Shown: in pieces, positions 1,346 to 46,667 of the stretch
How the letters are laid out: each line of letters starts with the position of its first letter
How positions within the stretch are numbered: the stretch's first letter is position 1
Assembly: GCA_937872425.1 (NCBI GenBank)
Contig: CALMSM010000149.1
Coordinates: forward strand, 1-55,191
Direction: 5' to 3'
DNA: 55,191 nucleotides
Source of the DNA: an uncultured Candidatus Saccharibacteria bacterium
GTDB lineage: Bacteria; Patescibacteriota; Saccharimonadia; Saccharimonadales; CALMSM01
Notes under the pieces: model-generated
Told to the model about the DNA's origin: nothing
Database searches by the model: none
The model's input: only the letters and a program-made list of their open reading frames with translations
Position numbers and translations under genes: made by a program

Positions 1346-2778
1346 TGAGCGACATCTTAGAGCGCCTGGTCAATGCGCTTGAAAAAATTGAGACCAAATC
1401 GCAATCGCCGCTGCACACCAAAGCGCCGGCGAGCGTCAATACCTCCACGCTGCTGAGTCAACCTGGCGGTATCTTCTCTGTGGTTGGCATGGAGCAGGAC
1501 ATTATCTCTGCTCATGTTCGGCCTACCGGTTTGGGTTCTACTTTGCCTGCTTTCCCTAGCAATTTGGACGATCCTCGCTACGGGTTTCTGAATGGCTTTA
1601 CTGCTACAGTTGGCAGTGAGCCTACGAATCCCTGTGACGATGCGCCCGCTGGCTTTATGAAGGGTGGCACACTTACCGCTGCCTTTGGCCGTATTGCCCG
1701 TGACACGCAGACCATCGAAATTGGGAAATTGCTACACCAAACTCGCGGTGCAACCACGAATCTCCGCTTGATTGGCGACATGCTGAATATGGGTGATTTT
1801 AACCCTGCGCAGATGAGCCAAAACGAAGTATTGAACATGGTTGTGCAGTCCGAAATGGTGGGCGTTGGTGTGCAGATGGAGCGCAAGCTGTCCACTATGC
1901 TTTGGCAAGGCGTCACCACGAACAATACTGCTGGTGGTGGCTACAAAGAGTTTCCTGGCCTCGATTATCAAATCGCTACTGGCCAGGTAGATGCCGAAAC
2001 CAACACGGCAATGTCGGCTGCTGACAGCTACGTGCTTGACTTCAACTACAATGATCTTGATGGCACTACGCTGGACATTGTTGAATACCTGTCTATGACA
2101 GAGTACCAACTCCGCAACAACGCTGTCCGTATGGGTCTTGACCCAGTGACGTTTGCCGTGGTGATGCGACCTGAGACATGGTTCGAGTTGTCCGCCGTTT
2201 GGCCATGCCGGTATCTTTCGTACCGCTGCGGCAACACGGGCGGCACCAACCCCACCGTGATCAACGATAACGTTAATGTGCAGTTGCGTGACGGTATGCG
2301 CAATGGCATGTATATCGACATCAACGGCAATCGTTACCCTGTGGTGGTTGATGACGGTATTTACGAAAATACCAACATCACAAGCGCCAATGTGCCCGCT
2401 GGCTACTACAGCAGCAACATCTATATGATTCCGCTGCGTGTTCGCGGTAATTTCCCTAGCCTTTACTGGGAGAATATCGATTACCGTGGAGCGCAACAGC
2501 AATTGAGCGCGCTAGGCGCTGGCAACCGTGTTGTGCCCTTCTGGACAACCAATGGGCGCTTTATGTGGGCGTACAAGACGGCGGGTTTCTGTTTTAATCT
2601 GCAGGCCATTGTAGAGCCGCGCATTGTATTGCGCACGCCTCAATTGGCTGGCAAGATTCAAAATGTCCGGTACAGCCCGTTGAGTCACTTGCGTTCGCCG
2701 TTCTCCGATAGTGTCTATTGGGCCGATGGCGGCGTTTCGGTTAGAAGCACCGGCACGTCTTATCACGTCTGGAGCTAG
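1345..2778 (+). CDS. Major capsid protein (positional call)
   Basis: 477-aa ORF immediately after the scaffold-like ORF, with size and position typical of an HK97-fold capsid gene. The antisense ORFs inside it look spurious. Confidence 0.55.
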   Translation: MSDILERLVNALEKIETKSQSPLHTKAPASVNTSTLLSQPGGIFSVVGMEQDIISAHVRPTGLGSTLPAFPSNLDDPRYGFLNGFTATVGSEPTNPCDDAPAGFMKGGTLTAAFGRIARDTQTIEIGKLLHQTRGATTNLRLIGDMLNMGDFNPAQMSQNEVLNMVVQSEMVGVGVQMERKLSTMLWQGVTTNNTAGGGYKEFPGLDYQIATGQVDAETNTAMSAADSYVLDFNYNDLDGTTLDIVEYLSMTEYQLRNNAVRMGLDPVTFAVVMRPETWFELSAVWPCRYLSYRCGNTGGTNPTVINDNVNVQLRDGMRNGMYIDINGNRYPVVVDDGIYENTNITSANVPAGYYSSNIYMIPLRVRGNFPSLYWENIDYRGAQQQLSALGAGNRVVPFWTTNGRFMWAYKTAGFCFNLQAIVEPRIVLRTPQLAGKIQNVRYSPLSHLRSPFSDSVYWADGGVSVRSTGTSYHVWS

Positions 2779-3782
2779 TTGTATATTCTTTGTCCATTAT
2801 GGTTTTTTGTTCTGACCATAGGGACGGGCCAAGATGCTATTACCTGGCGTTTTCTATCTAACCAGGTAATAGCATCTTGGTACATATATTCAATCACTTT
2901 CATCGCCACCTTTCGCCCACTGTACGCCAAATAATACACATCAGATTTTGAATGTCGATTGATTTTTCTATCTGGATTGCTATCAACACCGGCATCTATC
3001 AGGCGTTTACGGATTAATTCAATCAGTATTGAGTCTGCCAAAAAGTTAATACCGCTGTTTGGATTAGTGAAAGCACATCCGTCTCCATCGAATAGACCTC
3101 TAAGCCAATGGTGAAACAGGTGATCTGGTATTCGTTCTATTGTTTCGTTAGGCAAGTGGCGACCGACAGATACCCCGTAAAAGTGCAATCTTTCGATTAG
3201 GTGCCTGTCTGTAACATACAAGCCGGCGCTAGGGTATTTCTTCCCTTTGCATTGCTTTTCCCTCATTACTACCGGCGCATCTGTCCTCAAAAAAGATTTT
3301 AGTTTTTCGAGATGTGTAAAATCTACGCTTTTCAGTGAGACACTTAGGCTTTTGTCGTTTGTGCTGCCATCGGCATATAGAAACCCTAGCCAGTAGGCCG
3401 CACCTTCATTATCGATGGAATCAAAAACCGTATTGTTTAGTTTGTGAATTCTGTTTCTCTCTGGCGCCAGTCTTTGCTCCACGCCCTGCCGCTTAATTGC
3501 GTCAACAATCGATATATGGTGGCTCAATCCGTACAGTTTGGCGATATTCTTCGCACTTATACCGTACAGGTACAGTTTTGCTATTTTCGCCTCCTCTTCG
3601 TCGCTGAAATTACGACTGTATATTCCGGCGCTGCGCATTTGAACGTCGTGTAACTTCAATGTCCGGTTAATTGTGTCAGTGTGTACCCCTAACGCAACGC
3701 CGATTTTAACCGTACTTTCCCCCGCAACATATAATGCCACGGCTTCTAATTCTTGCTTGTCAGATAGTCTTTTCTTTCCCAT
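2775..3782 (-). CDS. LAGLIDADG homing endonuclease with N-terminal HTH repeats
   Basis: Two LAGLIDADG motifs (WLGFLYADGS and WLRGLFDGDGC). It lies opposite in strand to the flanking structural genes, and its stop overlaps the capsid gene stop. Confidence 0.85.
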   Translation of the reverse strand: MGKKRLSDKQELEAVALYVAGESTVKIGVALGVHTDTINRTLKLHDVQMRSAGIYSRNFSDEEEAKIAKLYLYGISAKNIAKLYGLSHHISIVDAIKRQGVEQRLAPERNRIHKLNNTVFDSIDNEGAAYWLGFLYADGSTNDKSLSVSLKSVDFTHLEKLKSFLRTDAPVVMREKQCKGKKYPSAGLYVTDRHLIERLHFYGVSVGRHLPNETIERIPDHLFHHWLRGLFDGDGCAFTNPNSGINFLADSILIELIRKRLIDAGVDSNPDRKINRHSKSDVYYLAYSGRKVAMKVIEYMYQDAITWLDRKRQVIASWPVPMVRTKNHNGQRIYN

Positions 3783-3962: not shown

Positions 3963-3991
3963 TTGACATAATTCGCCATAGGTAGTATAAT
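3963..3991 (+). promoter_or_regulatory. Rightward consensus promoter TTGACA-17-TATAAT heading the sugar island
   Basis: TTGACA at 3963-3968, exact 17-nt spacer, TATAAT at 3986-3991. It is divergent from the 3912-3940 promoter. Confidence 0.7.
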
Positions 3992-4002
3992 TCCTACCAT
4001 GT

Positions 4003-4164
4003 ATGAATGAGCAAGTGACGATCAAAGTGTGGGCAGAGACCCGAAAAATGTTGCGGCTGATTCATGCCATGACCGGCGAGAGCATGGTCACGATATTGCA
4101 TAGGTTGGTTGAAGAAGAATGGAAGAAAGTAAAGCAGGGTTCTATAAAAACAAGCGAGTTGTAG
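4003..4164 (+). CDS. Small ribbon-helix-helix (CopG/Arc-like) protein, 53 aa, not in ORF track
   Basis: Translates as MNEQVTIKVWAETRKMLRLIHAMTGESMVTILHRLVEEEWKKVKQGSIKTSEL, which has a beta-strand/helix/helix pattern typical of RHH proteins. It is the first ORF after the consensus promoter. Confidence 0.5.
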   Translation: MNEQVTIKVWAETRKMLRLIHAMTGESMVTILHRLVEEEWKKVKQGSIKTSEL

Positions 4165-5078
4165 TGACGGGTGGCGCCGGCTTCTTGGGTTCGCATTTGG
4201 TGCAGATGCTAGAGGCGGCGGGGGCTTGTGTATATGTGCCACGTAGTACCGATTACGATCTACGGGATAGAGCGGACGCGCAATTTATGCTTAAGTCTGT
4301 AGGTGGTTTTAAGTGGGACATAGTATTCCATTTGGCCGCCCGTGTATCCGGCATTGCTTCCACCTCTGCAACACCGGCTGACCACATTTACGACAATGCA
4401 ATGATGGCGCTTAATGTGATTCACGCTTGCGCCAAGAATAATATCAAGCTTGTTGTGGCCGGTAGTGTCTGTGCTTATCCTCAACACACGCCCATGCCGA
4501 TGATCGAGGAAAACTTGTGGAATGGCGCGCCTGAACCGACCAACGCATCATACGGGGAAGCGAAACGCCTGGCATTAGCCACACTACAAGCCTACCACCA
4601 GCAACACAATTTGAAATGTGCTTATCTTCTCTCTGCCAACCTCTACGGGCCAAACGACCATTTTGACCCGCAAACTTCCCACGTTATCCCGGCACTTATC
4701 CGTAAAATTGACCATGCACAGGGGGGGGGCGATATGGGCATCTGCGTGTGGGGTAGCGGTAGCGCAAGCCGGGATTTTCTCTATGTGGAGGATGCCGCAA
4801 GAGCCTACATGCTGGCCGGTGAGTTGATTGATTGCCCCACGCCGATCAACATCGGTAGCGGCACCGAAACGCACATAGCATGGTTGGTTGAGGAATTAAA
4901 GAACATCATGGGCTTTCATGGCGATACTGTGTTTGATAGGAGCAAGCCCGATGGTCAACCCCGGCGTTGCTTGCGCATCTGGAAAGCGCAGGATATGTTG
5001 GGCTGGAATCCGACAACGCCGATAGGTGAGGGTTTACGTAAGACGGTGGAATGGTACAGGGAGAATGTAAATGAGTGA
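4119..5078 (+). CDS. GDP-L-fucose synthase-like SDR (GDP-4-keto-6-deoxymannose 3,5-epimerase/4-reductase family; Fcl/ColC-like)
   Basis: VVVTGGAGFLGSHL Rossmann motif, a YGEAK (YxxxK) motif, and SANLYGPNDHFDPQTSHVIPALIRK, which closely resembles the Fcl signature. Confidence 0.8.
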   Translation: MEESKAGFYKNKRVVVTGGAGFLGSHLVQMLEAAGACVYVPRSTDYDLRDRADAQFMLKSVGGFKWDIVFHLAARVSGIASTSATPADHIYDNAMMALNVIHACAKNNIKLVVAGSVCAYPQHTPMPMIEENLWNGAPEPTNASYGEAKRLALATLQAYHQQHNLKCAYLLSANLYGPNDHFDPQTSHVIPALIRKIDHAQGGGDMGICVWGSGSASRDFLYVEDAARAYMLAGELIDCPTPINIGSGTETHIAWLVEELKNIMGFHGDTVFDRSKPDGQPRRCLRIWKAQDMLGWNPTTPIGEGLRKTVEWYRENVNE

Positions 5079-5529
5079 CGAAAAACTTGCATCATTGCTT
5101 GATACGGTTGTTCATATAGCCGCCGTGCAAGGTTTTATGCTAAAAATAATTTGTATTTTGCAAGCCAGAATGATCGATCACGACACAAGCAAATTACAAG
5201 AGCCTGAATTGTCGGGTTATGCGGGGCTATCTCAGGCATTGAAAGGTTTAGCTTATGGTAGTTCAGAGCATAGAGCGGCTTTTACGCCATTCAAAGAAAT
5301 TATTAAGCATCACTACGAAAATAACGATCATCATCCTGAACATTTCGGTAACGGCATTGCTGATATGGACATTATACAGTTCGTAGAAATGCTATGCGAC
5401 TGGAAGGCGGCATCCACCAGAAACTCAGGTTCACTAGGTGACACTATAGACAAGAGTATTGAGAGATTCGGGATTGATACGCAGATGGCAGCGGTTATCA
5501 AAAATACTATTCGTAATCTTGGATGGTAG
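5071..5529 (+). CDS. Hypothetical protein with HD-like His/Asp motifs
   Basis: IDHDTSK and HHYENNDHHPEH motifs; ATG overlaps the upstream stop. Function is not assignable by eye. Confidence 0.4.
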   Translation: MSDEKLASLLDTVVHIAAVQGFMLKIICILQARMIDHDTSKLQEPELSGYAGLSQALKGLAYGSSEHRAAFTPFKEIIKHHYENNDHHPEHFGNGIADMDIIQFVEMLCDWKAASTRNSGSLGDTIDKSIERFGIDTQMAAVIKNTIRNLGW

Positions 5530-5544
5530 ACGGGGGGAATTGTA

Positions 5545-5739
5545 ATGGCTGAAAACGAGAGCATTCACGCATTGCTTATGATGTCAGAGTTGTTGAGACT
5601 TTTACATGGATTAAAAGGCGAAGATAGAAGCGAGAAAGCGAGACGGTATGCCGTGACCATCACGGAGATGGAGAAGGTTTTCGCTTATTTCAATACGTTC
5701 GTGGTTCGTGCCGACACCGATGAAGTGGGCGACAACTAA
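5545..5739 (+). CDS. Hypothetical protein (64 aa)
   Basis: ORF in operon context with a TAATG overlap to the next gene. Confidence 0.4.
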   Translation: MAENESIHALLMMSELLRLLHGLKGEDRSEKARRYAVTITEMEKVFAYFNTFVVRADTDEVGDN

Positions 5740-6458
5740 TGCGTATCTTCGTTCTAACCAGTGACGGTTATTCTCATTCTGTCTTGGGATTCTCCTATTT
5801 GTTCAATAAATATTGGGGCAATGACCAAGAGGTTATTGTTGCCGGTTACAATAAATTCCCGCCTGGACTACCGGCCAACTTCACCAAGCATCGCATAGGC
5901 CGCCAAGAAGATTACCCTGTCAATAAATGGTCAGACGGGCTTATCGGCTTACTGAAAGACTTCCCGCAGGACGAAGTGTTTCTTCTCTTCTTCGAGGATT
6001 ACTGGTTAACTGAACCTGTCCATCTTCGCGAAGTCAACATGCTGCACGATTACATGCTTCAATTCCGCTATGTGCTCAAAATGGACATGTACACCGACCG
6101 GCGCTATGCCGCTGGCGTGCAGAAGTACGGCGCGTGTGGGCATATTCCGCTGCTTAAAAGCGACTACAATAGTCAATATCACTTTTCGCTAATGGCGGGC
6201 ATCTGGAATCGTGAAATTATGATGCAGGTGTTAATCCCTGGTGAGAGTCCCTGGGATGTTGAGATGCGAGGTACAGAACGGCTAGCGCGTTGCGGGGATG
6301 ACGTGCTGGTGCTGGGCACTGATTCATGGGACGATAACCCGAAGACTTGCCCGATCCGTCACACACTAGCATATCGCAACGGCGACCCTAGCAAGTTGTT
6401 GCTTGGTGAAATTAAGCCCGAAGATGTGGATGCCATGAAGGAATCAGGGTATATATGA
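5739..6458 (+). CDS. Hypothetical protein, possible nucleotide-sugar transferase
   Basis: 239 aa, translationally coupled on both sides. An FFEDYW (DXD-like) motif is the only hint of function. Confidence 0.4.
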   Translation: MRIFVLTSDGYSHSVLGFSYLFNKYWGNDQEVIVAGYNKFPPGLPANFTKHRIGRQEDYPVNKWSDGLIGLLKDFPQDEVFLLFFEDYWLTEPVHLREVNMLHDYMLQFRYVLKMDMYTDRRYAAGVQKYGACGHIPLLKSDYNSQYHFSLMAGIWNREIMMQVLIPGESPWDVEMRGTERLARCGDDVLVLGTDSWDDNPKTCPIRHTLAYRNGDPSKLLLGEIKPEDVDAMKESGYI

Positions 6459-6790
6459 AGTTTTTAGTATGCGAAAGGCAAGAATCGCCGGGGTGCGATT
6501 ATACCATTGGGTGTGGCATGCGATACGGATTCATAGACGCCGAAAATATTGACGATGCAATTCAAAAGACTGTTTTCCCCGATGGCCCTGACGAGCTGCC
6601 TACCTTTTTATGGGATGGGGGTATGGCGGAGATTTTGATAGTTCAGATAGATGCATCCACATCCTATAGCTGGGTAGATATAGATTCATTAAAGGCCCAG
6701 CACGATGAGGCCGAATCAGAGGAAAAACGGAAAGCCACAGAAGTAAATGAACGGGCATTACTAGACAAGTTGCGGAAGAAATACGCGTGA
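6455..6790 (+). CDS. Hypothetical protein (111 aa)
   Basis: ATGA overlap upstream and GTGA overlap downstream. Confidence 0.4.
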   Translation: MKFLVCERQESPGCDYTIGCGMRYGFIDAENIDDAIQKTVFPDGPDELPTFLWDGGMAEILIVQIDASTSYSWVDIDSLKAQHDEAESEEKRKATEVNERALLDKLRKKYA

Positions 6791-7938
6791 AAGTTTCATT
6801 AGGCACCTGGCAAAATACGCCGCGAATCGAAGCCGCTGTGCTGTCTGTGCTGCATAGTGGCCGCTTGTCCTATGGGCCGGTATCGCAAGCCTATGAGCGG
6901 CGCTTTGCAAAAATGCACGATTGCGATTATGGCGTAGTCAGCAACAGCGGCACATCTTCTCTGGTAGTGGCATTGCAATCGCTTAAACATATGCATAGCT
7001 GGCAAGACGGCGATGAGGTGATTGTACCGGCGTTGACCTTCGTGGCATCGGTCAACGCCATTTTGCACAATCGACTTACACCTGTGCTGGTTGATGTGAA
7101 TCCCCATACATTTAATATTGAGCCAACATTAATCGAGGGTGGAATCACCGACCGCACGCGCTGTATTATGCCAGTACATCTGTTTGGTCAACCGGCGCAT
7201 ATTGCTAATATTTGCACGTTTGCGCTAAAGCATAATTTGTCAGTAGTGGAAGATAGTTGCGAAGCTGTTTTGGCAAAACAATTTGGTGCATCTGTTGGTT
7301 CATGGGGTGATGTTGGATGCTTTAGCACCTATGCCGCGCATCACCTGGTCACTGGCGTCGGTGGCATGGCAACCACGAACAATCCAGACCTAGCGAAACT
7401 TATGCGCAGCCTGGTCAATCACGGTATCGATTTGACTGAACTGCCCAACGGCGAAAATTATGACCCGTCATTTCTGGCTAGAAAGTTCAGGTTTACCAGT
7501 GTAGGCCATAGCTTCAGAATGACTGAATTAGAGGCGGCGATTGGTCTCGCTCAACTTGATGACCTACCGGCACACATTGAACATCGCCGCAAAAACGCTG
7601 AATATCTCATCACTGGCTTGACCGGCTTAGATGGTTGTCTTCAAACACAAGCGACTTTGTTTGGCGCTCACCACAGTTGGATGGTATTCCCCATTGTGCT
7701 GCGCTATGGCTCCAAGTGGCCGGTTATGAAACATCTGCAAGCGCATGACATCGAATGTCGTGAAATGGTGCCACTAACAAACCAGCCATGCTACAATTTC
7801 AACGAGGCTGATTACCCCGTGGCAAAGAACATCAACGAGCGGGGCTTCTACGTTGGGTGTCACCAGGGATTAACCACGGAGCATTTGGAACATATCATCA
7901 GTACACTACAGGACTATTTCAATGGCGCACACAAGTGA
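6787..7938 (+). CDS. DegT/DnrJ/EryC1-family PLP/PMP enzyme with His in place of the Schiff-base Lys (ColD/E1-type sugar 3-dehydratase-like)
   Basis: Family motifs are VSNSGTSSLVVAL, VPALTFVAS and VEDSCEA. The active-site segment FSTYAAHHLVTGVGG aligns to the usual FSFxxxKxxTTGEGG with H at the K position. It has a GTG start. Confidence 0.65.
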   Translation: MKVSLGTWQNTPRIEAAVLSVLHSGRLSYGPVSQAYERRFAKMHDCDYGVVSNSGTSSLVVALQSLKHMHSWQDGDEVIVPALTFVASVNAILHNRLTPVLVDVNPHTFNIEPTLIEGGITDRTRCIMPVHLFGQPAHIANICTFALKHNLSVVEDSCEAVLAKQFGASVGSWGDVGCFSTYAAHHLVTGVGGMATTNNPDLAKLMRSLVNHGIDLTELPNGENYDPSFLARKFRFTSVGHSFRMTELEAAIGLAQLDDLPAHIEHRRKNAEYLITGLTGLDGCLQTQATLFGAHHSWMVFPIVLRYGSKWPVMKHLQAHDIECREMVPLTNQPCYNFNEADYPVAKNINERGFYVGCHQGLTTEHLEHIISTLQDYFNGAHK

Positions 7939-8518
7939 ATCGTTACGGCAGGCTTTTGGTTATTTTTACCAAAACGAATTGTCCATGCTGAAGTCGTTAG
8001 TCTACCTATGCCCATCGTCACCTATCACTGTGGTCAATATCGGCGCGGGCGCTGGCACATCCGGCTTGGCTTTTTTAGAGACACGCCTCGACCTTCGCCT
8101 GCACACCGTGGATATTACCGACAAAAGCAGTCCGTTCGGATGCCTACACGCCGAACGAGAAGTATGTCAAGCGGCTGGCTTTACGCTCGGTGATAGATGG
8201 CATCAGCACCACATGGACAGTAAACAGCTCGCCCAGTGGTGGGATTATGGGCCGATAGACGTATGTTTTATCGATGGAGATCATACCTACGAGGGCGCAA
8301 GCGGCGATATTGTGGGCTGGTTGCCACACATGCGGACGGGTGGCTTTATGGCCGTGCATGATTATCGTAAGCAGGATGTACCGAGACCTGATGACGGTCA
8401 GGTTAGGCCGAGCAAAGAACTTTGTTCGGATGTAGATGTGGCCGTGGATGAATTTCTAAAATCACAGTTTGAAGTTTTTGCTTTGGTTGAATCGTTGATT
8501 GTGTTCCAGGTGAAATGA
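7922..8518 (+). CDS. Class I SAM-dependent methyltransferase
   Basis: VVNIGAGAGTSGLAF motif I and an FIDGDHTYEG motif typical of small O-methyltransferase-like enzymes. Confidence 0.75.
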   Translation: MAHTSESLRQAFGYFYQNELSMLKSLVYLCPSSPITVVNIGAGAGTSGLAFLETRLDLRLHTVDITDKSSPFGCLHAEREVCQAAGFTLGDRWHQHHMDSKQLAQWWDYGPIDVCFIDGDHTYEGASGDIVGWLPHMRTGGFMAVHDYRKQDVPRPDDGQVRPSKELCSDVDVAVDEFLKSQFEVFALVESLIVFQVK

Positions 8519-8692
8519 TGAAACAATCGATTGCAGAGTTTGCAGCTTCAATAAAGGATTTGCAAATTTCTATAGCAAAGAGCGTTCCCTTCACCTTGTT
8601 TTTTCGGATTGTAAGTTTTTTGGATTGGTTAAGCCGAACTATAGATGAAATTTCGATTACACTGGTCAAATGGTGGTATCAAGCAAAATGAT
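8435..8692. repeat. Direct repeat copy 1 (about 258 bp)
   Basis: Covers the 3' end of the methyltransferase gene plus a small ORF. It is near-identical to 9114-9373. Confidence 0.85.
8515..8691 (+). CDS. Small ORF (58 aa) inside repeat copy 1, not in ORF track
   Basis: MMKQSIAEFAASIKDLQISIAKSVPFTLFFRIVSFLDWLSRTIDEISITLVKWWYQAK. The reading frame is preserved in both repeat copies despite a 3-nt indel. Confidence 0.35.
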   Translation: MMKQSIAEFAASIKDLQISIAKSVPFTLFFRIVSFLDWLSRTIDEISITLVKWWYQAK

Positions 8693-9074
8693 GAGTAGAT
8701 TCAAACGACCTGAGCCTAGCGACGCATCGCCCCAGCAAGTGCTAGATGCCATCGGCGCTATCACTGATTGGGATTGGGAAACGGGATATTCATTCGCTCA
8801 TATAGTTTTGGATGACGTAAATTTGCTAGATAGGCATATTCTATACTGTCTTCATCCACAATGGATTAGCGACGTAATGATGGGGCGAATGGATGACAGC
8901 GTAAAGGAGCATAAGACGTTCGATGATTTAAATGATCATCAAATCAATATTTACCGTCACGCAATCGAACATATGGTGGAAATTGTTACCCTCCTCAATT
9001 GGCTGTTGAATGTGCCAGAGGACACAAGATCGATTGCTGAAGATTTGCATCACGGCACGGATGAGGAACAATGA
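8688..9074 (+). CDS. Hypothetical protein (ORF track start 8670; ATG 8688 overlaps upstream stop)
   Basis: Its N-terminal KRPEPSDASP resembles KRPEPPSDSYAP at the start of the 9572 gene. Confidence 0.45.
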   Translation: MMSRFKRPEPSDASPQQVLDAIGAITDWDWETGYSFAHIVLDDVNLLDRHILYCLHPQWISDVMMGRMDDSVKEHKTFDDLNDHQINIYRHAIEHMVEIVTLLNWLLNVPEDTRSIAEDLHHGTDEEQ

Positions 9075-9113
9075 ACCTAGCACAAGATTAGGCCGCACCC
9101 ACTGGAATGGCAC

Positions 9114-9373
9114 GATGTGGATAAGGCTGTGGATGAATTTCTTAAATCTCAATTCGAGGTATTTGCTTTGGTTGAATCGTTGATTGTGTTCCAGGTGAAA
9201 TGATGAAACAATCGATTGCAGAGTTTGCAGCTTCAATAAAGGATTTGCAAATTGCCCTAGCAAAGAGCGTTCCCACCTTGTTTTTTCGGATTGTAAGTTT
9301 TTTGGATTGGTTAAGCCGAACTATAGATGAAATTTCATCTACTCTAGTTGGATGGTGGTATCAGGTGAAATAA
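9114..9373. repeat. Direct repeat copy 2 (about 260 bp)
   Basis: Begins with a relic of the methyltransferase C-terminus (DKAVDEFLKSQFEVFALVESLIVFQVK) and then a second copy of the small ORF. Confidence 0.85.
9200..9373 (+). CDS. Small ORF (57 aa) inside repeat copy 2, not in ORF track
   Basis: Paralog of 8515-8691 with an in-frame 3-nt deletion. Confidence 0.35.
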   Translation: MMKQSIAEFAASIKDLQIALAKSVPTLFFRIVSFLDWLSRTIDEISSTLVGWWYQVK

Positions 9374-9606
9374 TGGTCTACTTGCACTATGTTCGACATG
9401 GGATAATCTACATGGATGCGTGTGACGATACAGCGGAAGCCGTCGAACAGGCGGCATATCTGGAAGGAGATGGCCTGGCATCTGTCGATTGTGTCAAGGA
9501 TAGTGATGGTAACATTATCCTTGGTAATGCGATGTTGTGGAAGGGCATAGCGGGTATTTGGAGGGAATGGGATGAATCTAGCACAAGAAATGGCAAAGCG
9601 CCCTGA
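9373..9606 (+). CDS. Hypothetical protein (ORF track start 9352)
   Basis: TAATG overlap with the small ORF. 77 aa when counted from ATG 9373. Confidence 0.4.
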   Translation: MVYLHYVRHGIIYMDACDDTAEAVEQAAYLEGDGLASVDCVKDSDGNIILGNAMLWKGIAGIWREWDESSTRNGKAP

Positions 9607-10324
9607 GCCACCTAGTGATAGCTATGCGCCAAACTGGGATTACTGGCGGCATAATCTATGGAGCCGAGCGCAGACCGATGCACCTGAGAATTTTTACAAA
9701 TGGCCGTGCGTGTATCACACAATGCTCGTGGAGCACTGGCGTAGTATTATCACGGAGACCGAGTATAGGTATGTTCTGCGATTCATAGATGTTGACAAAT
9801 GGGCTTTAATACTAACCGAAGATGGCCGCAATCAAATCCACCAACTATACCACCTCCTCCGCTGGCAAGAAGCCAGCGGCAAGCGCATCGCAGATATGCG
9901 GTCAATCTGCGAGTTCGGCGGCGGCTATGGCGCTATGGCGTTGGTGTGCCACCGGCTAGGTTTCAAAGGCGACTACTACATCTATGACCTACCTGAGTTT
10001 TGTTTGCTTCAGCAATGGTATTTAGAGCAAAACGGCATCAAGGTCAAGCACTCAAGTGAGATTGTGCCGCTTGACGTTGAACTGATGATTGCTTGCTATT
10101 CATTAAGTGAAACCGATTACGCTGAACGTGATGAGTTTTTAGACATGGTACATGCAAGCAATCATTTGTTTCTCTACAGCAATAAATTTGAGAAGTTTGA
10201 CAACATCGATTATTTTCAGCAACTTGATTTTGGTGGTCACTGGCAACATAGCCATATTGAGCATTTGCCGCCTGAGAGTTGGTATAGTTTTGGATGGGGT
10301 GATGAGGCGAAATATCATGACTAA
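9572..10324 (+). CDS. Putative SAM-dependent (sugar O-) methyltransferase
   Basis: ICEFGGGYGAMALV is an ExGxGxG-like SAM motif; the ORF lies within the sugar island. Confidence 0.5.
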   Translation: MNLAQEMAKRPEPPSDSYAPNWDYWRHNLWSRAQTDAPENFYKWPCVYHTMLVEHWRSIITETEYRYVLRFIDVDKWALILTEDGRNQIHQLYHLLRWQEASGKRIADMRSICEFGGGYGAMALVCHRLGFKGDYYIYDLPEFCLLQQWYLEQNGIKVKHSSEIVPLDVELMIACYSLSETDYAERDEFLDMVHASNHLFLYSNKFEKFDNIDYFQQLDFGGHWQHSHIEHLPPESWYSFGWGDEAKYHD

Positions 10325-10829
10325 ATTTGTATCTGCCGTGCTTAGTTCACTGGCGCTCGTGATGTTTATGTCTGCCAAAGCCGACTCAACAGTCATTCAA
10401 TGGGACGGTAGCTGTTACAGTAGTGAGGTTGCTACTACCGGCCTTGTCACAATCACGAAAACTTACAACGGCTGGTATTATGATGTGTTGATGACCGGTA
10501 ATTTATCTATAGATGGCACGCCGGATTGGATACGGGCACAAGAATTACCGCCCGGTTTTCTACCTGACACAGACGACCTAACAATGTACGCCTGTGACAT
10601 TGCCTACAACAGTAATGATGTTCGATATTGGCCTATAAGCGCTGCAATGGATGGCACCTACGGCAACGGCGCATTGTATTTTGATAATCACAACGGTGCC
10701 TATGAATTACTCTGCAAGTGGCGCACCACGCAACGCAATCCGTCAATCAGCGTGTGGAATAGCTGCGCCGGTATCAAGGTGCTGAACTATGTACCGTTTC
10801 GCTTGTATGTGCCAGTGATGAGCAACTAG
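10317..10829 (+). CDS. Secreted Cys-containing protein (signal peptide)
   Basis: Internal start MTKFVSAVLSSLALVMFMSAKA/DSTV gives a classic signal peptide. The upstream part of the listed ORF overlaps the previous gene. Confidence 0.55.
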   Translation: MTKFVSAVLSSLALVMFMSAKADSTVIQWDGSCYSSEVATTGLVTITKTYNGWYYDVLMTGNLSIDGTPDWIRAQELPPGFLPDTDDLTMYACDIAYNSNDVRYWPISAAMDGTYGNGALYFDNHNGAYELLCKWRTTQRNPSISVWNSCAGIKVLNYVPFRLYVPVMSN

Positions 10830-11681
10830 ATGCTAGTCAATCTATTTGACTTCAACTTTCGTCAATCCGTGTGTTCGGTGGCCTATCAGACACCCGAACA
10901 TATCCAGTACGTGCGAGACCTGACCACGTTTGATGGTGTGACCATCTTCACCGATGGCTATATCACCGATGGCAGCGTTGACCGTGTACGTAGTCGGTAC
11001 AAAATCGCATGGTTGCACGAGCCATACTGTTTGCATCCTGACACCTATCAGGCAGCATTACTCGACGCACACAAGTTTGACCTGGTGCTGACCTACTATC
11101 AGCCATACTTAGACCTGGGGCGTAATTTTCGCTTTTGTCCCTATGCCGGCACGTGGATAGACAAAAAGGACTGGGGTATCAAGCCGAAAACGAAATTATG
11201 TTCCATGCTCATCGGTAACAAAATGAGCACAGACGGGCATCGCATCCGGCATGACATCGCCAACATGATAGAGCGCGAAGGATACCCCGTGGACTTTTAT
11301 GGCAGCCGTGGCACACCGGTTGGGTATGGGCAAGATACCAAATACAAGGTGCTGGCCGATTACGCTTTTAGTATTTGCACGGAAACATGCTACGAAGAAA
11401 ACTTGTTTACCGAATGGCTACTAGATTGTTTTGCGCTGGGCACAATCCCGATTTACTGGGGGTGCCCAAATCTCAAACGGTTCTTTATCCATGCTGGTAT
11501 AGAACAGTTTGGTTTGGTAAAATCACTGGGATTGTCTTATTTGGATATTGTTTTAACGATGTTGTCGATGAGAAGTTATGAGAATTTTATTGAGTCGGCA
11601 CACAACAATCTAAACATAATGCAAAAATACGCCGTTACCGAGGACTGGCTATACCTGAACATGCTAAAGGAATTTGAATGA
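10830..11681 (+). CDS. Glycosyltransferase with GT10 (fucosyltransferase)-like C-terminal motif
   Basis: YAFSICTETCYEENLFTEWLLDCFALGTIPIYWG resembles the FxLxFENSxxxxYxTEK...IP(I/V)YWG region of alpha-1,3-fucosyltransferases. Confidence 0.45.
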   Translation: MLVNLFDFNFRQSVCSVAYQTPEHIQYVRDLTTFDGVTIFTDGYITDGSVDRVRSRYKIAWLHEPYCLHPDTYQAALLDAHKFDLVLTYYQPYLDLGRNFRFCPYAGTWIDKKDWGIKPKTKLCSMLIGNKMSTDGHRIRHDIANMIEREGYPVDFYGSRGTPVGYGQDTKYKVLADYAFSICTETCYEENLFTEWLLDCFALGTIPIYWGCPNLKRFFIHAGIEQFGLVKSLGLSYLDIVLTMLSMRSYENFIESAHNNLNIMQKYAVTEDWLYLNMLKEFE

Positions 11682-11785
11682 TTTGTGACATAACGGTAGA
11701 GCATATACTTGCGCTAATTCTTGGGCAGATAATCGGCATGACAGTAATATTTATGGCATGGCAGTGTGTAAAAAAATATTTATGA
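11678..11785 (+). CDS. Micro-ORF, 35-aa hydrophobic peptide, not in ORF track
   Basis: MICDITVEHILALILGQIIGMTVIFMAWQCVKKYL. It has ATGA overlaps at both ends, bridging two enzyme genes. Confidence 0.3.
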   Translation: MICDITVEHILALILGQIIGMTVIFMAWQCVKKYL

Positions 11786-12858
11786 TCAACGTCTTCCAGC
11801 CAAACGCCGGTCAAGCCGAGCTGTCCGCCATCGCTGAAACGTTTGAATCCAACTGGCTAGGCAAAGGTAAGCGAGTTGCAGAGTTTGAGGCAGCTTGGGC
11901 CAAACACATCGGCACCACACCGGATCACGTTGTCTCAACCACATCAGCTACGGAAGGATTGTTCCAAATCTGTGAGCTAATCGGGTTGCACCGTGGCGAC
12001 AAAGTGATCATGCCAACCGTCTCATTTATCGGCGCTGCTAATGCCGTGCTTGCTACCGGCGCAACGCCTGTATTCTGTGACGTAGACCGATACACGCTGA
12101 ATCCTAGATTGTCTGATATTCAAGCGGTCTACACCAAACACACTTTTGCGCTTATCCTACTACACTATGGCGGCTCTACTCAGGAGCTGGGCGAGATTCG
12201 ATGCTGGTGCAATGAGAATGACGTGGTAATGATAGAGGATGCCGCTTGCGCGCAGGCTACAGTTTACCGAGGTAAAGCGGCTGGCACCTGGGGCAAGTTT
12301 GGCGTGTGGTCGTTCGATGCCATGAAAGTGATTACGACTGGCGACGGCGGCATGATATACTGTGAGGATGCCAACGACGCGAAACGTCTACGCCAGCGCA
12401 TGTATATGGGAATGGAAGAATCAAGCGGACTGAGTTCGACCGGGGATAAGTGGTGGAAATTTTCAACAAACCACCCTGGGCGGCGTGCTATCATGAATGA
12501 TATGGCGGCTGGTATGGGACTGGCACAGTTACCGAAGTTGGCCGGATTTATCGATAGGCGTAAAAGTATATCATCTGTATACCAAACGGTAGAGGGTGTG
12601 TATTTTGATTGTGGCATATTGCCGTATTATTTCTTTTGGATTCAAACGCTGAACCGTGATGGCCTCGCCAAGCATCTAAAAGCCAACAACATCTATACCA
12701 CCTTTCGTTACTACCCACTACACTGGGCGCTAAAAACCGGCGATAGCTTGCCCAACGCAGAATGGGCGGCAAACAACACGCTATTGTTGCCGCTGCACCA
12801 AGCGCTTAGTGATGACGATGTGATGTTCGTGTGCGATAAGGTTAAGGAGTTTTTTTAG
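11758..12858 (+). CDS. DegT-family sugar aminotransferase (Lys-type; perosamine-synthase-like class)
   Basis: VSTTSATEGL, MPTVSFIGA and IEDAACA motifs, plus SFDAMKVITTGDGG with the catalytic Lys present. Alternative start at ATG 11782. Confidence 0.8.
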   Translation: MAVCKKIFMINVFQPNAGQAELSAIAETFESNWLGKGKRVAEFEAAWAKHIGTTPDHVVSTTSATEGLFQICELIGLHRGDKVIMPTVSFIGAANAVLATGATPVFCDVDRYTLNPRLSDIQAVYTKHTFALILLHYGGSTQELGEIRCWCNENDVVMIEDAACAQATVYRGKAAGTWGKFGVWSFDAMKVITTGDGGMIYCEDANDAKRLRQRMYMGMEESSGLSSTGDKWWKFSTNHPGRRAIMNDMAAGMGLAQLPKLAGFIDRRKSISSVYQTVEGVYFDCGILPYYFFWIQTLNRDGLAKHLKANNIYTTFRYYPLHWALKTGDSLPNAEWAANNTLLLPLHQALSDDDVMFVCDKVKEFF

Positions 12859-13800
12859 TTGAGAGTTAAAATGATACCCTCCGCTCTCAACCTGACATCA
12901 GGCGAAAGCGGCATCCACACGATATGTAGAAAATGGACAGAGCACGGTGCATCTGTCGGCATTGATTTTGTGGAGCCAAATGAGTCAACCTATGATTTGC
13001 TAGCCGTTCATGCGGGCATGAGCAAAGAGTACGCCACAGCCAACGCTCCGCTGGTCAGTCACCTTCATGGAATCTATTGGACGGCGGATTACGATGCTCA
13101 CTACTGGGAGTGGAAAGCCAACCGGGATGTAATCGACTCTATCCGTTATGCCACATCCGTTACCGTGCCAAGCGCCTGGGTGGCTGAACCATTACAACGC
13201 GATATGCACCTGAATCCTTACATCCTACCGCATGGCATCGACTGGCAAGAGTGGCAGCACAAAGAGCCGAACGAAGGATACGTGCTGTGGAATAAAAACA
13301 GATCGGGTGTTGATGTATGTAGTCCCATTGCTGTGGGCAAGCTAGCGCAACGCTTCCTGCAAGTGCCATTTATGACCACCTTTGCACCAGACAACGCCAC
13401 GCCAAATATTAAGGCAACTGGGTTGCTTCCTCATGCCGAAATGAGGGTGGCTGTGCAACGGTCAGCGGTCTATCTGGCATCGGTCAAAGAAACGTTCGGC
13501 ATCGGCATTCTTGAAGCGATGGCTAGTGGCGTGCCGGTCTTGGGCTTTGCACATGGCGGCATTATGGAGATGGTCGAGCATGGCGTGAACGGCTATCTCG
13601 CCAGACCTGGCGATTATGAGGATTTAGCCGAGGGCCTAAACTATTGCTTAAAGCACCGTGATACGCTGGGCGCTAACGGGGCTGAACTTGCCAAGCTGTT
13701 TACCTGGCAAAGCGTCATGCTGAAGCTACGTGGCATCTATGACGCCACGCTTAGAATGTTGGCGCATGGCAGGCCGTACGCGATAGATGAGGGATCATGA
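12859..13800 (+). CDS. GT4-family glycosyltransferase (GT-B)
   Basis: The ETFGIGILEAMASGVPVLG...VNGYL motif (E-x7-E). Start is TTG 12859 or ATG 12871. Confidence 0.8.
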   Translation: MRVKMIPSALNLTSGESGIHTICRKWTEHGASVGIDFVEPNESTYDLLAVHAGMSKEYATANAPLVSHLHGIYWTADYDAHYWEWKANRDVIDSIRYATSVTVPSAWVAEPLQRDMHLNPYILPHGIDWQEWQHKEPNEGYVLWNKNRSGVDVCSPIAVGKLAQRFLQVPFMTTFAPDNATPNIKATGLLPHAEMRVAVQRSAVYLASVKETFGIGILEAMASGVPVLGFAHGGIMEMVEHGVNGYLARPGDYEDLAEGLNYCLKHRDTLGANGAELAKLFTWQSVMLKLRGIYDATLRMLAHGRPYAIDEGS

Positions 13801-14219
13801 GATTAGTTGAAATTTCCGAAGAAACGATACGCGAGCAGATTAAAGAATTGCCAGAGCGGTGGCTTCGGTACGCCACAGTACATAAATCTGAGGTGAATCC
13901 AATCCGGGGTGGAATAGATTGGAGTTTAGGCGCATACAGCACTGATGCAAACGAGGGGGACTGGAAAACTTTCCGGTGGAACGGTCTGACATGCGAGGAA
14001 ATATATAAGGGATTAAAAAATCTGCCAGATAATGCTGGCGATTCAGATGTCATAAAAATTATGGGCGAATATAGGATCAACGAATGGGTTAGGCTGCCAT
14101 TGTGTTGGTCTTGTCAATTAAGAATGAAAAAATATGTCGAATTAGCGGAGGATTCGGATAATGGTTCAATTTGTTTTTGTGAATCCTGTATACGAAAAGC
14201 GTTGCAATTACTGAAATGA
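13797..14219 (+). CDS. Hypothetical protein with C-terminal Cys cluster
   Basis: CWSC...CFCESC motifs; ATGA overlaps on both sides. Confidence 0.45.
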   Translation: MRLVEISEETIREQIKELPERWLRYATVHKSEVNPIRGGIDWSLGAYSTDANEGDWKTFRWNGLTCEEIYKGLKNLPDNAGDSDVIKIMGEYRINEWVRLPLCWSCQLRMKKYVELAEDSDNGSICFCESCIRKALQLLK

Positions 14220-16240
14220 CAGACATTTTACTGCCATTGCCATTGGTCAGTGTCGTGATCCCTTGTTACAACAAATCTGCATCTATTGCTCGTACTATTA
14301 GTAGCGTCAAGAGGCAGTCTTTGTCCAATCTTGAATGCATCATTGTTGACGATGGCTCTACTGACAATTCAAAAGAAATCATTCTGGACGCAATTAAGAA
14401 TGATCGTCGATTTCATTATATCTACCAGGATAATCAGCGCGTGGCGGCGGCACGGAATAAGGGATTTAGGCAATCAACGGGTCTCTATCTATGCATGCTC
14501 GACGGAGATGACGCCATAGCTCCCCTGTTTTTAGAGTTATGCGTTAGAGCGCTAGAGAATGATCGTTCGATGGGTATTGCCTATAGTGGATTGCATTACA
14601 TTTTACCAGATGGAGCGCAGGGTTTAAGCGGATGGCCGGGGCGATTTGATTACAATGTAGTCCTGACAGGCGGCAACCCATTACCGACCTGCAATGTCGC
14701 GCGGCGTGATGTGTGGGAACGAACAGGCGGACAACGGAGCCGATATTGCGAAAGTGGCGCTGGCGAGGAAGATGCTGAGATGTGGTTGCGCGTTGGCGCA
14801 TTAGGGTTCAATGCCATCCAGATTGAACCGGCTGCAACATTGGTTGATATATATGCCGAACTGAAAAAGGTTTTAGGTAGGGAGCCGACCAGGGATGAAA
14901 TCATAGGCACGGGACGAATCAATGGTGAAAATTACGAAAAAGCCGTTAATTCTATGTTTGTTTACTCGTGGAAGTCTGGTCAGGTGAGCGGTAATCCACA
15001 GCACGTAAAATCTAAATATCAATCAGGTCATCCGTGGATGACGGACAAGCGCCACCCGTTCGCTTCGATGGCGCCTGCGACAGAGGGTCGTCAATCGCAC
15101 GCCGTCCGGCAATACGATGAGCCAGCGGTATCGGTGATTATCCCCTGTGGGTCTGACCACGTGCAATATTTGGTAGATGCGCTGGACAGCCTTGAGGCGC
15201 AACAGTATCGCAAATGGGAAGCGATTGTCGTCTTTGACACAGGTGAACGCAATTATGATGCGCTGTTGATGGCTTACCCATTTGTGCGGCCAGTCTATAC
15301 CAACAAAGTAGGCGCTGGCGCCGCACGCAACGCCGGGGCAAAGATTGCTCGCGCCAAGCTGCTATTGTTCCTCGATGCCGATGACTGGCTTAGACCTATC
15401 ACGCTGGAGAAGATGCTAATAGCCTGGAACAATAGTCAAGCGATTATTTACGGCGATTACTACGGCCATGCATTTATTGAGCCAAAAGAAGCCGAGCGCC
15501 TGAAGATGGGCGAGCGCCTTGTATCTTACAACGCCAAAACGCAAGCGGCGGTGATGATTCACAATGCCTCGAATTATGATTGTGAGGAGGCCATTCGACA
15601 ACCACGCTTGATTAAGCCGGATCAGTTCTACATCTGGAACCTGATTTGTTCGCTTGTGCCTAAAGTGTGGCATGATGAAATTGGTGGCTTTGATGAATCA
15701 ATGGCGTCTTGGGAAGACTGGGATTACTGGCTTAGAATGGCGCGGGCGGGCAAGTGCTTCGAGCGCATCACAGAGCCGTTGGTCAATTATCGTTTTTATA
15801 CTGGAAACAGGCGTGAAAGTGGTAGACAAATTGCGGAAAGTCTGCTACAATATATGCGAAGAAAATATGAGGAGATTCCAGCAATGGCGTGTAGCGGGTG
15901 CGGTGGCGGTCGGCCACAACAACAGAATCCAGTAGTTCAGGCGGCGGCATTAGCCATGCCCTTACAGGCCAGCGGCCAACCGGCGCAAAATGTGACAAGC
16001 GCTGACATTGTGTGGGTGAAAGTGGCCGGCAATCGAGTTGGCACACGCCCAACAGTGGGTATGGTAACACGTCAGCAATATGGCTATAAGGATTCTAATA
16101 GCCCAGCGTTCAAAATGTTTCTGGCCGATGTTCGAGCACAACCGACCATTTACATGATTGTGCCTGACCCATCATCGGCTAGAGTGGCAGAATTGACACC
16201 ACAGCAACAGCCGTTGGGTGAGCCAATTAGGATTGCATAG
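14216..16240 (+). CDS. Two-domain GT2-family glycosyltransferase
   Basis: Two GT-A modules. The first is VSVVIPCYNK...IIVDDGSTDNS...DGDD; the second is VSVIIPCGSD...LDADDW...WEDWDYWLR. Confidence 0.85.
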   Translation: MTDILLPLPLVSVVIPCYNKSASIARTISSVKRQSLSNLECIIVDDGSTDNSKEIILDAIKNDRRFHYIYQDNQRVAAARNKGFRQSTGLYLCMLDGDDAIAPLFLELCVRALENDRSMGIAYSGLHYILPDGAQGLSGWPGRFDYNVVLTGGNPLPTCNVARRDVWERTGGQRSRYCESGAGEEDAEMWLRVGALGFNAIQIEPAATLVDIYAELKKVLGREPTRDEIIGTGRINGENYEKAVNSMFVYSWKSGQVSGNPQHVKSKYQSGHPWMTDKRHPFASMAPATEGRQSHAVRQYDEPAVSVIIPCGSDHVQYLVDALDSLEAQQYRKWEAIVVFDTGERNYDALLMAYPFVRPVYTNKVGAGAARNAGAKIARAKLLLFLDADDWLRPITLEKMLIAWNNSQAIIYGDYYGHAFIEPKEAERLKMGERLVSYNAKTQAAVMIHNASNYDCEEAIRQPRLIKPDQFYIWNLICSLVPKVWHDEIGGFDESMASWEDWDYWLRMARAGKCFERITEPLVNYRFYTGNRRESGRQIAESLLQYMRRKYEEIPAMACSGCGGGRPQQQNPVVQAAALAMPLQASGQPAQNVTSADIVWVKVAGNRVGTRPTVGMVTRQQYGYKDSNSPAFKMFLADVRAQPTIYMIVPDPSSARVAELTPQQQPLGEPIRIA

Positions 16241-16441
16241 ATGAATGACGAAATGAAAATCCTATTCAGCGACGAAAAAGATGGCAGCGTAAAAATTTTA
16301 TTTGTTGATCCTGCACTGTTGTCCTGCGGGCAAAACTTGAAGATAGACTTTACTGGCTGGACTAATTTGGATTTTCATTATCGGCCATCGACCCTCAGTA
16401 TAGCACGTAGTCAATTCGTAGCGAAGGAAAACGCTAGCTAG
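16241..16441 (+). CDS. Hypothetical protein (66 aa)
   Basis: Last ORF before the intrinsic terminator. Confidence 0.4.
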   Translation: MNDEMKILFSDEKDGSVKILFVDPALLSCGQNLKIDFTGWTNLDFHYRPSTLSIARSQFVAKENAS

Positions 16442-16489
16442 AACGATTCTAATCAGTACAATTAAATAGTACCCGCGTTCGTAGTTATG

Positions 16490-16526
16490 AGGCGCTATCT
16501 CAGAAATGGGATAGCGCCTTTTTTTA
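16490..16526 (+). terminator. Rho-independent terminator
   Basis: AGGCGCTATC (16490-16499) pairs with GATAGCGCCT (16510-16519) and is followed by a T7 run. Confidence 0.8.
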
Positions 16527-46644: not shown

Positions 46645-46667
46645 TTCTGTATCCTCGAAATTCGCTA

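Follow-up and report, generated by a model that had tools for sequence, protein, structure and literature searches.

The pyridoxamine 5'-phosphate (PMP)-dependent sugar 3-dehydratases are DegT-fold enzymes in which a His replaces the catalytic Lys, and they work either by the hydrolytic route of ColD or by the iron-sulfur (Fe-S) route of E1 and SpnQ (PMC8987622). In Escherichia coli O55 and O111, the GDP-L-colitose pathway consists of Gmd, ColD (WbdK), ColC (WbdJ), and a colitosyltransferase, which is a GT11 glycosyltransferase (GT), and couples an Fe-S-free His-type DegT enzyme to a partner of the Fcl family. The same combination is found in the 55,191-nt stretch of DNA analyzed here (contig CALMSM010000149.1 of assembly GCA_937872425.1, referred to as the window), which is DNA of an uncultivated tailed phage with a genome of ~67.9 kb. 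Its tailed-phage origin is marked by a tape-measure protein at 23474-28378, and the window corresponds to a ~67.9-kb metagenomic contig (NODE_8, L001) that is circularly permuted. Two of its open reading frames (ORFs), 6787-7938 and 4119-5078, encode respectively a Lys-less DegT-fold protein (hereafter the His enzyme) and an Fcl-family short-chain dehydrogenase/reductase (SDR). Both lie in a region at 3963-16520 which, taken jointly with the rest of the explanation given below, we regard with a modest lean in its favor as a single promoter-to-terminator glyco-island. Our favored reading, to which we give somewhat better than even chances, is that this island tailors a host GDP-sugar to deoxy and amino sugars and glycosylates virion proteins with them.

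The His enzyme (plus strand, 383 aa, GTG start) matches Pfam DegT_DnrJ_EryC1 (PF01041) over its full length (292.4 bits, E 7e-87) and has 55 relatives in the PDB. The first His of its motif CFSTYAAHHLVTGVGG, H185, lies in HMMER alignments opposite Lys186 of the Caulobacter GDP-perosamine synthase Per (FSFFGNKIITTGEGG) and opposite the catalytic His of E1 (VSFYPAHHITMGEGG); it also lies opposite His188 of E. coli O55 ColD (FSSFYSHHIATMEGG; the reference ColD and ColC were taken from E. coli O55:H7). None of the alignments places a Lys at the catalytic position. A His occupies position 185 in all 116 motif-matched proteins from the 120 closest homologs (52-100% identity). A 24-sequence alignment (A1) shows no exception to it, and among 81 cellular relatives, taken from GTDB genomes that span many phyla of bacteria and archaea, 80 keep it. 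A first-pass annotation of the window had proposed this His-for-Lys substitution, and both the alignments to Per, E1, and ColD and the family-wide conservation bear it out. As proposed there too, the DegT fold and the conserved His would place the protein among the PMP-dependent sugar 3-dehydratases.

Within this class, the His enzyme is predicted to be of the ColD type, that is, a hydrolytic, glutamate-recycled, Fe-S-free nucleoside diphosphate (NDP)-4-keto-6-deoxyhexose 3-dehydratase. The segment that carries the [2Fe-2S] ligands in E1 (C-Y-C-x-x-x-C...C) is a Cys-free loop in the His enzyme, and by the criteria of PMC8987622 the absence of these Cys residues would make it ColD-like in mechanism rather than E1/SpnQ-like. 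Pfam and NCBIfam scans of the island detected no gene for an E3-like or ferredoxin-reductase partner. The enzyme is nevertheless not an ortholog of ColD, as it shares 25-28% identity with ColD, compared to 30% with E1 and 37% with Per, and falls in a separate clade. Among solved structures, GDP-perosamine synthase scores highest (175.7 bits), with E1 at 166 bits, and the top NCBIfam model is RfbH (E1), at 225.8 bits against a cutoff of 423. In a neighbor-joining tree without bootstrap, in which the branch order is indicative only, the proteins with the motif CFSTYxAH..TGVGG form a tight clade of their own, apart from that of E1 and from that of ColD and the enzyme of Synechococcus phage S-CAM7. 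This clade is large and uncharacterized, and is present in bacteria, archaea, and viruses.

The partner gene at 4119-5078 (plus strand) encodes an extended SDR (Pfam Epimerase, 178 bits) predicted to be of the GDP-4-keto-6-deoxyhexose 3,5-epimerase/4-reductase type. Its best NCBIfam model is GDP-L-fucose synthase (NF047922, GDPFucSynFcl; 259.7 bits, below the 500-bit equivalog cutoff), and in the PDB it matches E. coli GDP-fucose synthase best (1bsv; 195 bits, 36.9% identity). Aligned with E. coli Fcl and ColC, it keeps Ser107, Cys109, Tyr136, Lys140, and His179 of Fcl, which comprise the Ser-Tyr-Lys triad and the Cys109/His179 epimerization pair of the Fcl/GMER family. With all of the Fcl catalytic residues in place, the pairing of an Fcl-type enzyme with the His enzyme that had been pointed out in the annotation is upheld; its label "Fcl/ColC-like" holds for the Fcl family and less well for ColC, to which the SDR is 27.8% identical. 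The SDR subtype, with the motifs GGAGFLG and G[ST][VI]C[AS]YP, co-occurs with the His enzyme. We also considered a disguised 4,6-dehydratase and rejected it, because the SDR has the Ser-x-Cys motif of Fcl and not the Thr-Ser-Glu of Gmd (seen in S-CAM7 Gmd), and because E. coli Gmd gives no tblastn match to it at E<10.

Gene neighborhoods indicate which sugar nucleotide these two enzymes may use. Within 10 kb of 80 cellular relatives of the His enzyme, we counted 17 ORFs of the Gmd type, which are 38-62% identical to E. coli Gmd and 8 of which are adjacent, 26 SDRs best matching the phage SDR (17 adjacent), and 11 canonical Fcl genes. There is no ManC and no RmlB of >30% identity in the same intervals, so that by neighborhood the enzymes side with GDP-sugar rather than with UDP- or dTDP-sugar genes. 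In cells and in other viral contigs, the relatives beside Gmd are 42-51% identical to the window enzyme, and the Gmd beside them is 39-64% identical to that of E. coli or S-CAM7. Most of the viral loci that carry the His enzyme outside the phage lineage have Gmd as well, and IMG/VR contigs of this kind show the order GT11 - Gmd (49-64% identity) - phage-type SDR or RmlC-like cupin - GT10-like - His enzyme. Consecutive genes in locus L079 encode Gmd, a phage-type SDR, a His enzyme, and a canonical Fcl, which indicates that the phage-type SDR is a distinct paralog that partners the His enzyme in the way that ColC partners ColD. The occurrence of Gmd and of the same SDR subtype beside the relatives thus points to GDP-4-keto-6-deoxymannose as the substrate of both the His enzyme and the SDR, an assignment that we consider well supported by these neighborhoods. 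The annotation had assumed this substrate for all three tailoring enzymes of the island; we assign it to these two only, the third being a TlmJ-like Lys-type enzyme described below.

It is unlikely that part or all of the chemistry starts instead from host dTDP- or CDP-4-keto-6-deoxyglucose and leads to abequose/paratose-like or 4-amino-L-talose/rhamnose-like sugars. E1 is a CDP enzyme, and it is prominent among the relatives of the His enzyme both as the top NCBIfam model and in the PDB, with an AHH motif in common; however, its Fe-S motif is absent from the His enzyme, no E3-like reductase is present, and the top solved relative is a GDP-sugar enzyme. Likewise, the Lys-type enzyme resembles TlmJ, and 4-amino-4,6-dideoxy-L-talose, the TlmJ product, is stereochemically simplest to derive from an intermediate of the dTDP-4-keto-L-rhamnose type, whereas the SDR belongs to the Fcl family, known only for GDP-sugars. 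FdtA and a formyltransferase occur in a related island (L094), and a few archaeal relatives adjoin RmlA/RmlB-like genes, but there is no true RmlB (≥40% identity) near any of the 81 cellular relatives, Gmd and Fcl types are frequent there and often adjacent, and in viral relatives Gmd is in the same operon.

The first-pass annotation had noted the lack of a GDP-mannose 4,6-dehydratase in the window. When E. coli Gmd, ManC, ManB, and RmlA-D were searched against the window by tblastn, only the Fcl-like gene was found, and the same queries gave nothing further in the fetched remainder of the ~67.9-kb genome; Pfam scans of the larger ORFs detected no gmd, manC, or rml either. This search covered ~98% of the ~68-kb genome (the window plus fetched parts of L001 and L089). 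None of ~25 lineage contigs in IMG/VR has gmd, manC, or rml within 10 kb of the island. As the lineage lacks Gmd near the island while other viruses with the same enzyme family have it, the need for a host 4,6-dehydratase seems to be common to the lineage, and with neither a sugar-1-phosphate nucleotidyltransferase nor a 4,6-dehydratase, the NDP-4-keto-6-deoxyhexose would have to come from the host.

The His enzyme is closely associated with GTs. In 25-28 of the 81 cellular relatives it is fused to a C-terminal GT2-like domain of ~240 aa (e.g., L006, L014, L042, L043, L066, L079), which scores slightly below the cutoff of Pfam Glycos_transf_2 (20-23 bits). In the phage, the gene 5' of it (5739-6458, plus strand) encodes a 239-aa protein, tentatively referred to as w_239, and in most of the ~25 IMG/VR lineage contigs the two are directly adjacent. 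w_239 has no match in Pfam, PHROG, or NCBIfam, and only 137 homologs in 5.8 billion proteins, all on contigs of up to ~79 kb, sizes that are consistent with a family confined to this phage group. Its AlphaFold2 model, built with a multiple sequence alignment, has a predicted local distance difference test (pLDDT) score of 91.9, and the top Foldseek matches are GnT-I, POMGnT1, B4GALNT1, and SpsA (E down to 3e-6). Together with an invariant Asp in an L-E-D-Y-W motif, the model suggests a new GT-A family and a predicted glycosyltransferase. A relationship between w_239 and the GT2-like domain fused to the cellular His enzymes was rejected (hhalign probability 0.7%).

This association also bears on whether the His enzyme is a 3-dehydratase at all. 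It is decidedly unlikely to be something else, such as a Lys-less PMP transaminase (similar to a side activity of SpnQ), an epimerase, or a protein without catalytic activity that binds sugar nucleotides for the adjacent GT-A protein. A different role of this kind would suit its constant coupling to GTs, its place as the sole tailoring enzyme in about half of the lineage islands, where a reductase that could complete a 3,6-dideoxy sugar is missing, and its greatest overall similarity to an aminotransferase, Per. On the other hand, the His is invariant over hundreds of sequences, and recurrent gmd - SDR - His-enzyme - GT11 operons resemble the colitose operon of E. coli O55. SpnQ deprived of its reductase does have aminotransferase activity, but ColD and E1 have no transaminase activity under the same conditions, and the characterized DegT-fold enzymes with His at this position are all 3-dehydratases (PMC8987622).

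A second DegT-fold enzyme of the island, at 11758-12858 (plus strand; Pfam DegT, 242 bits), retains the Lys (VWSFDAMKVITTGDGG, SFDAMKVITTGDGG) and is a predicted sugar 4-aminotransferase. Gene calls of the same phage and the start of the TlmJ alignment point to the ATG at 11782 as the probable true start. In agreement with the annotation it is of the Lys type, although not of the perosamine-synthase type, since TlmJ (5uid) scores 335.7 bits (E 3e-99) and Per 118, with ArnB at 138. TlmJ acts in the 4-amino-4,6-dideoxy-L-talose branch of tallysomycin. Across the lineage, the Lys-type enzyme co-varies with the GT10-like gene and a gene for a 250-aa methyltransferase-like protein, independently of the SDR; by analogy with SpnQ/SpnR/SpnS, this would fit a branch running from 3-dehydratase to 4-aminotransferase to methylation. 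The GT10-like gene (10830-11681, plus strand) is predicted to encode a fucosyltransferase-like GT-B protein, and the motif reported in the annotation reflects a GT10 similarity that is real but marginal. It scores 23.1 bits against Pfam PF00852 (cutoff 23.9), its L093 ortholog matches PF00852, and Helicobacter pylori alpha1,3-fucosyltransferase (HpFucT; 2nzw) matches residues 153-219 (E 2e-7). E239 and E249 of HpFucT are kept, and Y246 and K250 are replaced by L and W; these four are presumably the residues of the nucleotide-binding motif of alpha1,3-fucosyltransferases.

The remaining genes complete a tight array at 4119-16240, all on the plus strand. A DUF5662 gene (5071-5529; PF18907, 105.8 bits) overlaps the SDR gene by 8 nt and is also found beside the TlmJ-like gene in L094; its His-rich motif KHHYENNDHHPEHF is suggestive of metal binding. 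Downstream of the His enzyme is a predicted class I S-adenosylmethionine-dependent methyltransferase (Methyltransf_24; 7922-8518, 60.9 bits) that recurs in related islands, followed at 9572-10324 by the putative 250-aa methyltransferase (w_250), which has a weak NanM-like sugar O-methyltransferase signal (TIGR04371, 24.9 bits against a cutoff of 44) and weak Methyltransf_2 and Methyltransf_23 matches. Between these two (8519-9571) are ~0.7 kb of extra small ORFs, including 8670-9074, which are absent from NODE_8 (67.9 kb) and present in a sister-sample contig (L002), a difference that represents strain-level indel variation in the island. A 170-aa protein with an N-terminal signal peptide (10317-10829; hydrophobic N-terminus MTKFVSAVLSSLALVMFMSAKA) has no family match and is not conserved in related islands. 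The array ends with a predicted GT4-type GT-B protein (12859-13800; Glycos_transf_1 63 bits, Glyco_trans_1_4 61 bits) and a double GT2 with two predicted GT-A domains (14216-16240; Glycos_transf_2 183 bits in two stretches), and these are fused to each other in L005 and L094.

On its 5' side, the array is preceded by a sigma-70 promoter-like site (TTGACA-17-TATAAT, 3963-3991, plus strand) 128 nt from the first island gene, the only 12/12 match in 20 kb, which is a consensus match only, as the total number of sites is not above that in shuffled sequences. It is closed by an intrinsic-terminator-like hairpin (16489-16520, plus strand) with a 14-bp stem and a T-run, the best-scoring in 20 kb, and L005 has an equivalent hairpin in the same relative place (18365-18391). 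Directly 3' of it is a gene for a DUF1360 membrane protein with 2-3 predicted transmembrane (TM) helices (16536-16838, plus strand), found in the same place in 19 IMG/VR contigs. The unit originally outlined, 4119-12858, spans about two-thirds of the island and falls short as a whole, since the new GT-A protein, the GT4, the double GT2, the methyltransferases, and the head-to-tail position were either outside it or unnamed.

The island is syntenic in a phage contig with a 63%-identical His enzyme and in IMG/VR contigs. The core w_239 - His enzyme - GT4 - GT2-GT2, then DUF1360, is invariant in the lineage, and the SDR, methyltransferases, GT10, Lys-type enzyme, sulfotransferase, FdtA, and formyltransferase are variable; this changing content makes the island look like a variable glycan cassette. 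For instance, the island on the 65-kb contig L093 gains a sulfotransferase and is without the SDR, while that on the 45.5-kb contig L094 contains an FdtA-like isomerase, a short DegT, a formyltransferase, a GT47-like gene, and three Methyltransf_24 genes, and no His enzyme. GIY-YIG or HNH genes lie within the islands of other lineage members such as L093.

In the pathway that we propose, host Gmd would most probably supply GDP-4-keto-6-deoxy-D-mannose. The His enzyme would bind PMP, and H185, acting as acid/base, would expel the 3-OH with no Fe-S cluster or reductase involved, giving GDP-4-keto-3,6-dideoxymannose. The SDR might then epimerize this compound and reduce C4 to yield a colitose-like 3,6-dideoxy-L-hexose; alternatively or in addition, it might form GDP-L-fucose straight from the 4-keto-6-deoxy intermediate. 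Transamination of the 4-keto intermediate by the TlmJ-like Lys-type enzyme would produce a 4-amino-(3,)4,6-deoxyhexose, which the two methyltransferases may methylate. Finally, five soluble Leloir-type GT domains (w_239, the GT10-like protein, GT4, and GT2-GT2) would build the glycan in the cytoplasm, where virion proteins are the likeliest acceptors.

Several features of the locus speak to this acceptor. The island lies between a conserved pair of genes for 442-aa and 477-aa proteins, probably head genes, and the tail genes. The second of the pair (1345-2778, plus strand) is syntenic in all lineage members (32-62% identity) and is by position a putative major head protein. It has no match in Pfam, PHROG, or the PDB, even with a 21-sequence profile and with PHROG scans of each member, and a single-sequence AlphaFold model has a pLDDT of 28.8 and no usable fold; with no family or profile match, the capsid label is a positional guess. 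The island enzymes are all without TM segments, the only membrane or secreted products being the DUF1360 protein, past the terminator, and the signal-peptide protein. Pfam scans of the island and window detected no flippase, polymerase, ligase, initiating phosphoglycosyltransferase, or GtrA/B-like gene. The head-tail position, the soluble GTs, and this lack of export machinery make cytoplasmic virion glycosylation the likeliest role, as read from gene content and order.

A serious rival to a virion role, if a rather improbable one, is that the island remodels host surface glycans (lipopolysaccharide O-antigen, capsule, or S-layer glycoprotein), serving lysogenic conversion or superinfection exclusion as a moron with its own host-type promoter. 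The perfect sigma-70 site and strong terminator that flank the island would agree with this, but in L005 there is no promoter-like site in the 57 nt between the 471-aa gene and the island, and the position between head and tail genes is kept across the whole lineage. In the window, a LAGLIDADG/helix-turn-helix (HTH) homing-endonuclease-like gene (2775-3782, minus strand) lies between the 477-aa gene and the island, and L005 lacks it. A divergent cI/Cro-like HTH pair at 46162-46942, which suggests a genetic switch, hints at a temperate lifestyle, whereas no integrase was detected in the genome regions scanned. The signal-peptide protein and the DUF1360 protein just past the terminator could belong to a surface function, yet the GTs are all soluble and the genes for glycan export and assembly listed above are missing. 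Host-surface remodeling would also fit the frequent GT2-like fusion in cellular relatives of the His enzyme, and O-antigens classically contain colitose, fucose, and perosamine-type sugars (PMC8987622).

It is highly improbable that the GTs decorate phage DNA, in the form of hypermodified bases, rather than proteins. Phage GTs do often glycosylate DNA (PMC12619734), and the genome has several DNA methyltransferases, but no hydroxymethylase or base-hypermodification gene turned up in any scan, the island is among morphogenesis and not replication genes, and five GT domains with methylated deoxy-amino sugars far exceed known DNA glycans.

Even so, a number of observations weigh against virion glycosylation with GDP-derived sugars. 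The His clade is only 25-30% identical to ColD and E1 and has no characterized member. About half of the lineage islands have the His enzyme with no recognizable SDR or aminotransferase, and in these islands the 4-keto product would have no phage-encoded reductase, so that the chemistry may differ. TlmJ presumably acts on an L-configured sugar, with the nucleotide uncertain. FdtA, carried by the L094 island, is typically a dTDP-sugar isomerase, and the few archaeal relatives mentioned above adjoin RmlA/RmlB-like genes and not Gmd. Further, no resemblance to any capsid protein could be detected for the 477-aa "head" protein, the perfect promoter and the terminator give the island a moron-like look that would fit host-cell modification, and the phage genome was inspected over all but ~1.2 kb. 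More tentatively, and as a possibility rather than an expectation, the CFSTYxAH enzymes may be a third Lys-less PMP lineage that arose from a perosamine-synthase-like scaffold and became wedded to GTs. They would be the sole tailoring step in minimal islands, making an undescribed virion sugar (e.g., a 4-keto-3,6-dideoxy hexose) and a variable, host-Gmd-dependent glycan coat on the capsid.

The phage lineage itself is very poorly charted, since nearly all of its morphogenesis genes are without a PHROG or Pfam family. Among the genes at 17-33215 of the window and in L001 (encoding a putative 723-aa portal and proteins of 442, 477, 427, 648, and 748 aa), the tape-measure gene is the sole recognizable one. 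PHROG scans of 8 further ORFs in the window and 2 elsewhere in the genome, the putative portal included, returned almost nothing, namely an FtsK/terminase-like ATPase and one weak tail-fiber match. An FtsK/HerA-like ATPase is encoded at 35074-36693 (minus strand). Just 5' of the tail tube/tape-measure region, a 493-aa protein (21116-22597, plus strand) has BNR/Asp-box repeats with sialidase-like beta-propeller signals and may be a glycan-binding or glycan-cleaving tail component. Among the DNA methyltransferases are an 852-aa SNF2-helicase/N6-N4 DNA methyltransferase fusion (40997-43555, minus strand) and a separate C5 cytosine methyltransferase (47319-48227, plus strand), and L005 has an additional N6_N4 methyltransferase within its glyco-island. 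In comparison with 50,697 GenBank phage genomes, the island has no megablast match, the 477-aa protein has no tblastn match, and the His enzyme finds nothing of >31% identity.

If the virion is glycosylated, this lineage would equip its own coat with rare deoxy and amino sugars that it synthesizes itself, instead of just transferring common host sugars, and we know of no described phage that does so. Such a coat would bear on host recognition, on evasion of immunity or grazing, and on environmental stability, while dependence on host Gmd would link the host range to one metabolic trait of the host. The His clade is also a target for deoxysugar enzymology and glyco-engineering.

Compared to the E. 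coli O55/O111 colitose pathway, whose layout is mirrored by the gmd - SDR - His-enzyme - GT11 operons of the phage-enzyme relatives, the phage has no gmd, manB/C, or GT11, but it does have five other GT domains as well as an aminotransferase and methyltransferases. Its His enzyme and SDR fall in clades separate from those of ColD and ColC, at the low identities given above, and the His motif is CFSTYxAH..TGVGG instead of FSSFYSHH..MEGG. E1 (DdhC/RfbH/AscC) and SpnQ have the same fold and the same His substitution, including A-H-H, but they depend on the [2Fe-2S] segment and reductase partner that the phage enzyme lacks. The latter is also far below the RfbH cutoff, and its genomic partners are GDP-pathway and not CDP/dTDP genes. 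TlmJ (5UID) aligns end to end with the Lys-type enzyme at ~48-55% identity, with the same SFDAMK..TGDGG motif, but comes from an actinomycete natural-product cluster and not from a phage. To our knowledge, its substrate has not been defined biochemically.

Among phages, S-CAM7 (KU686213), a 214-kb T4-like cyanomyovirus, has a gmd - fcl - "CDP-4-keto-6-deoxy-D-glucose-3-dehydrase" - GT11 cluster beside its tail-fiber genes. As in the window, a phage-encoded His-type DegT (FSFYFGHHMTTVEGG) lies next to an Fcl-type SDR and a transferase of the fucosyl/colitosyl type, so that chemistry of the ColD type already has a phage-encoded precedent in the databases. Unlike the window phage, S-CAM7 has its own Gmd (63% identical to that of E. 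coli), and its His-type DegT belongs to the ColD clade (32% identity to ColD, 29% to the window enzyme). A literature search on phages with GDP-mannose dehydratase found nothing relevant. The mycobacteriophage systems that Freeman et al. described in 2023 reportedly comprise glycosyltransferases and no sugar-nucleotide tailoring pathway. The island instead encodes, within 12 kb, three predicted tailoring enzymes along with two or three methyltransferases and five GT domains. In mycobacteriophages, soluble GTs encoded by the phage are thought to act in the cytoplasm on capsid and tail proteins (PMC12619734, citing Freeman et al.), which is the precedent for the virion role proposed here. Against this background, what is new here is an uncharacterized clade of His enzymes and its coupling to a phage-only GT-A family, together with how large and variable the island is, its location amid morphogenesis genes, and the lineage-wide lack of the committed-step enzyme.

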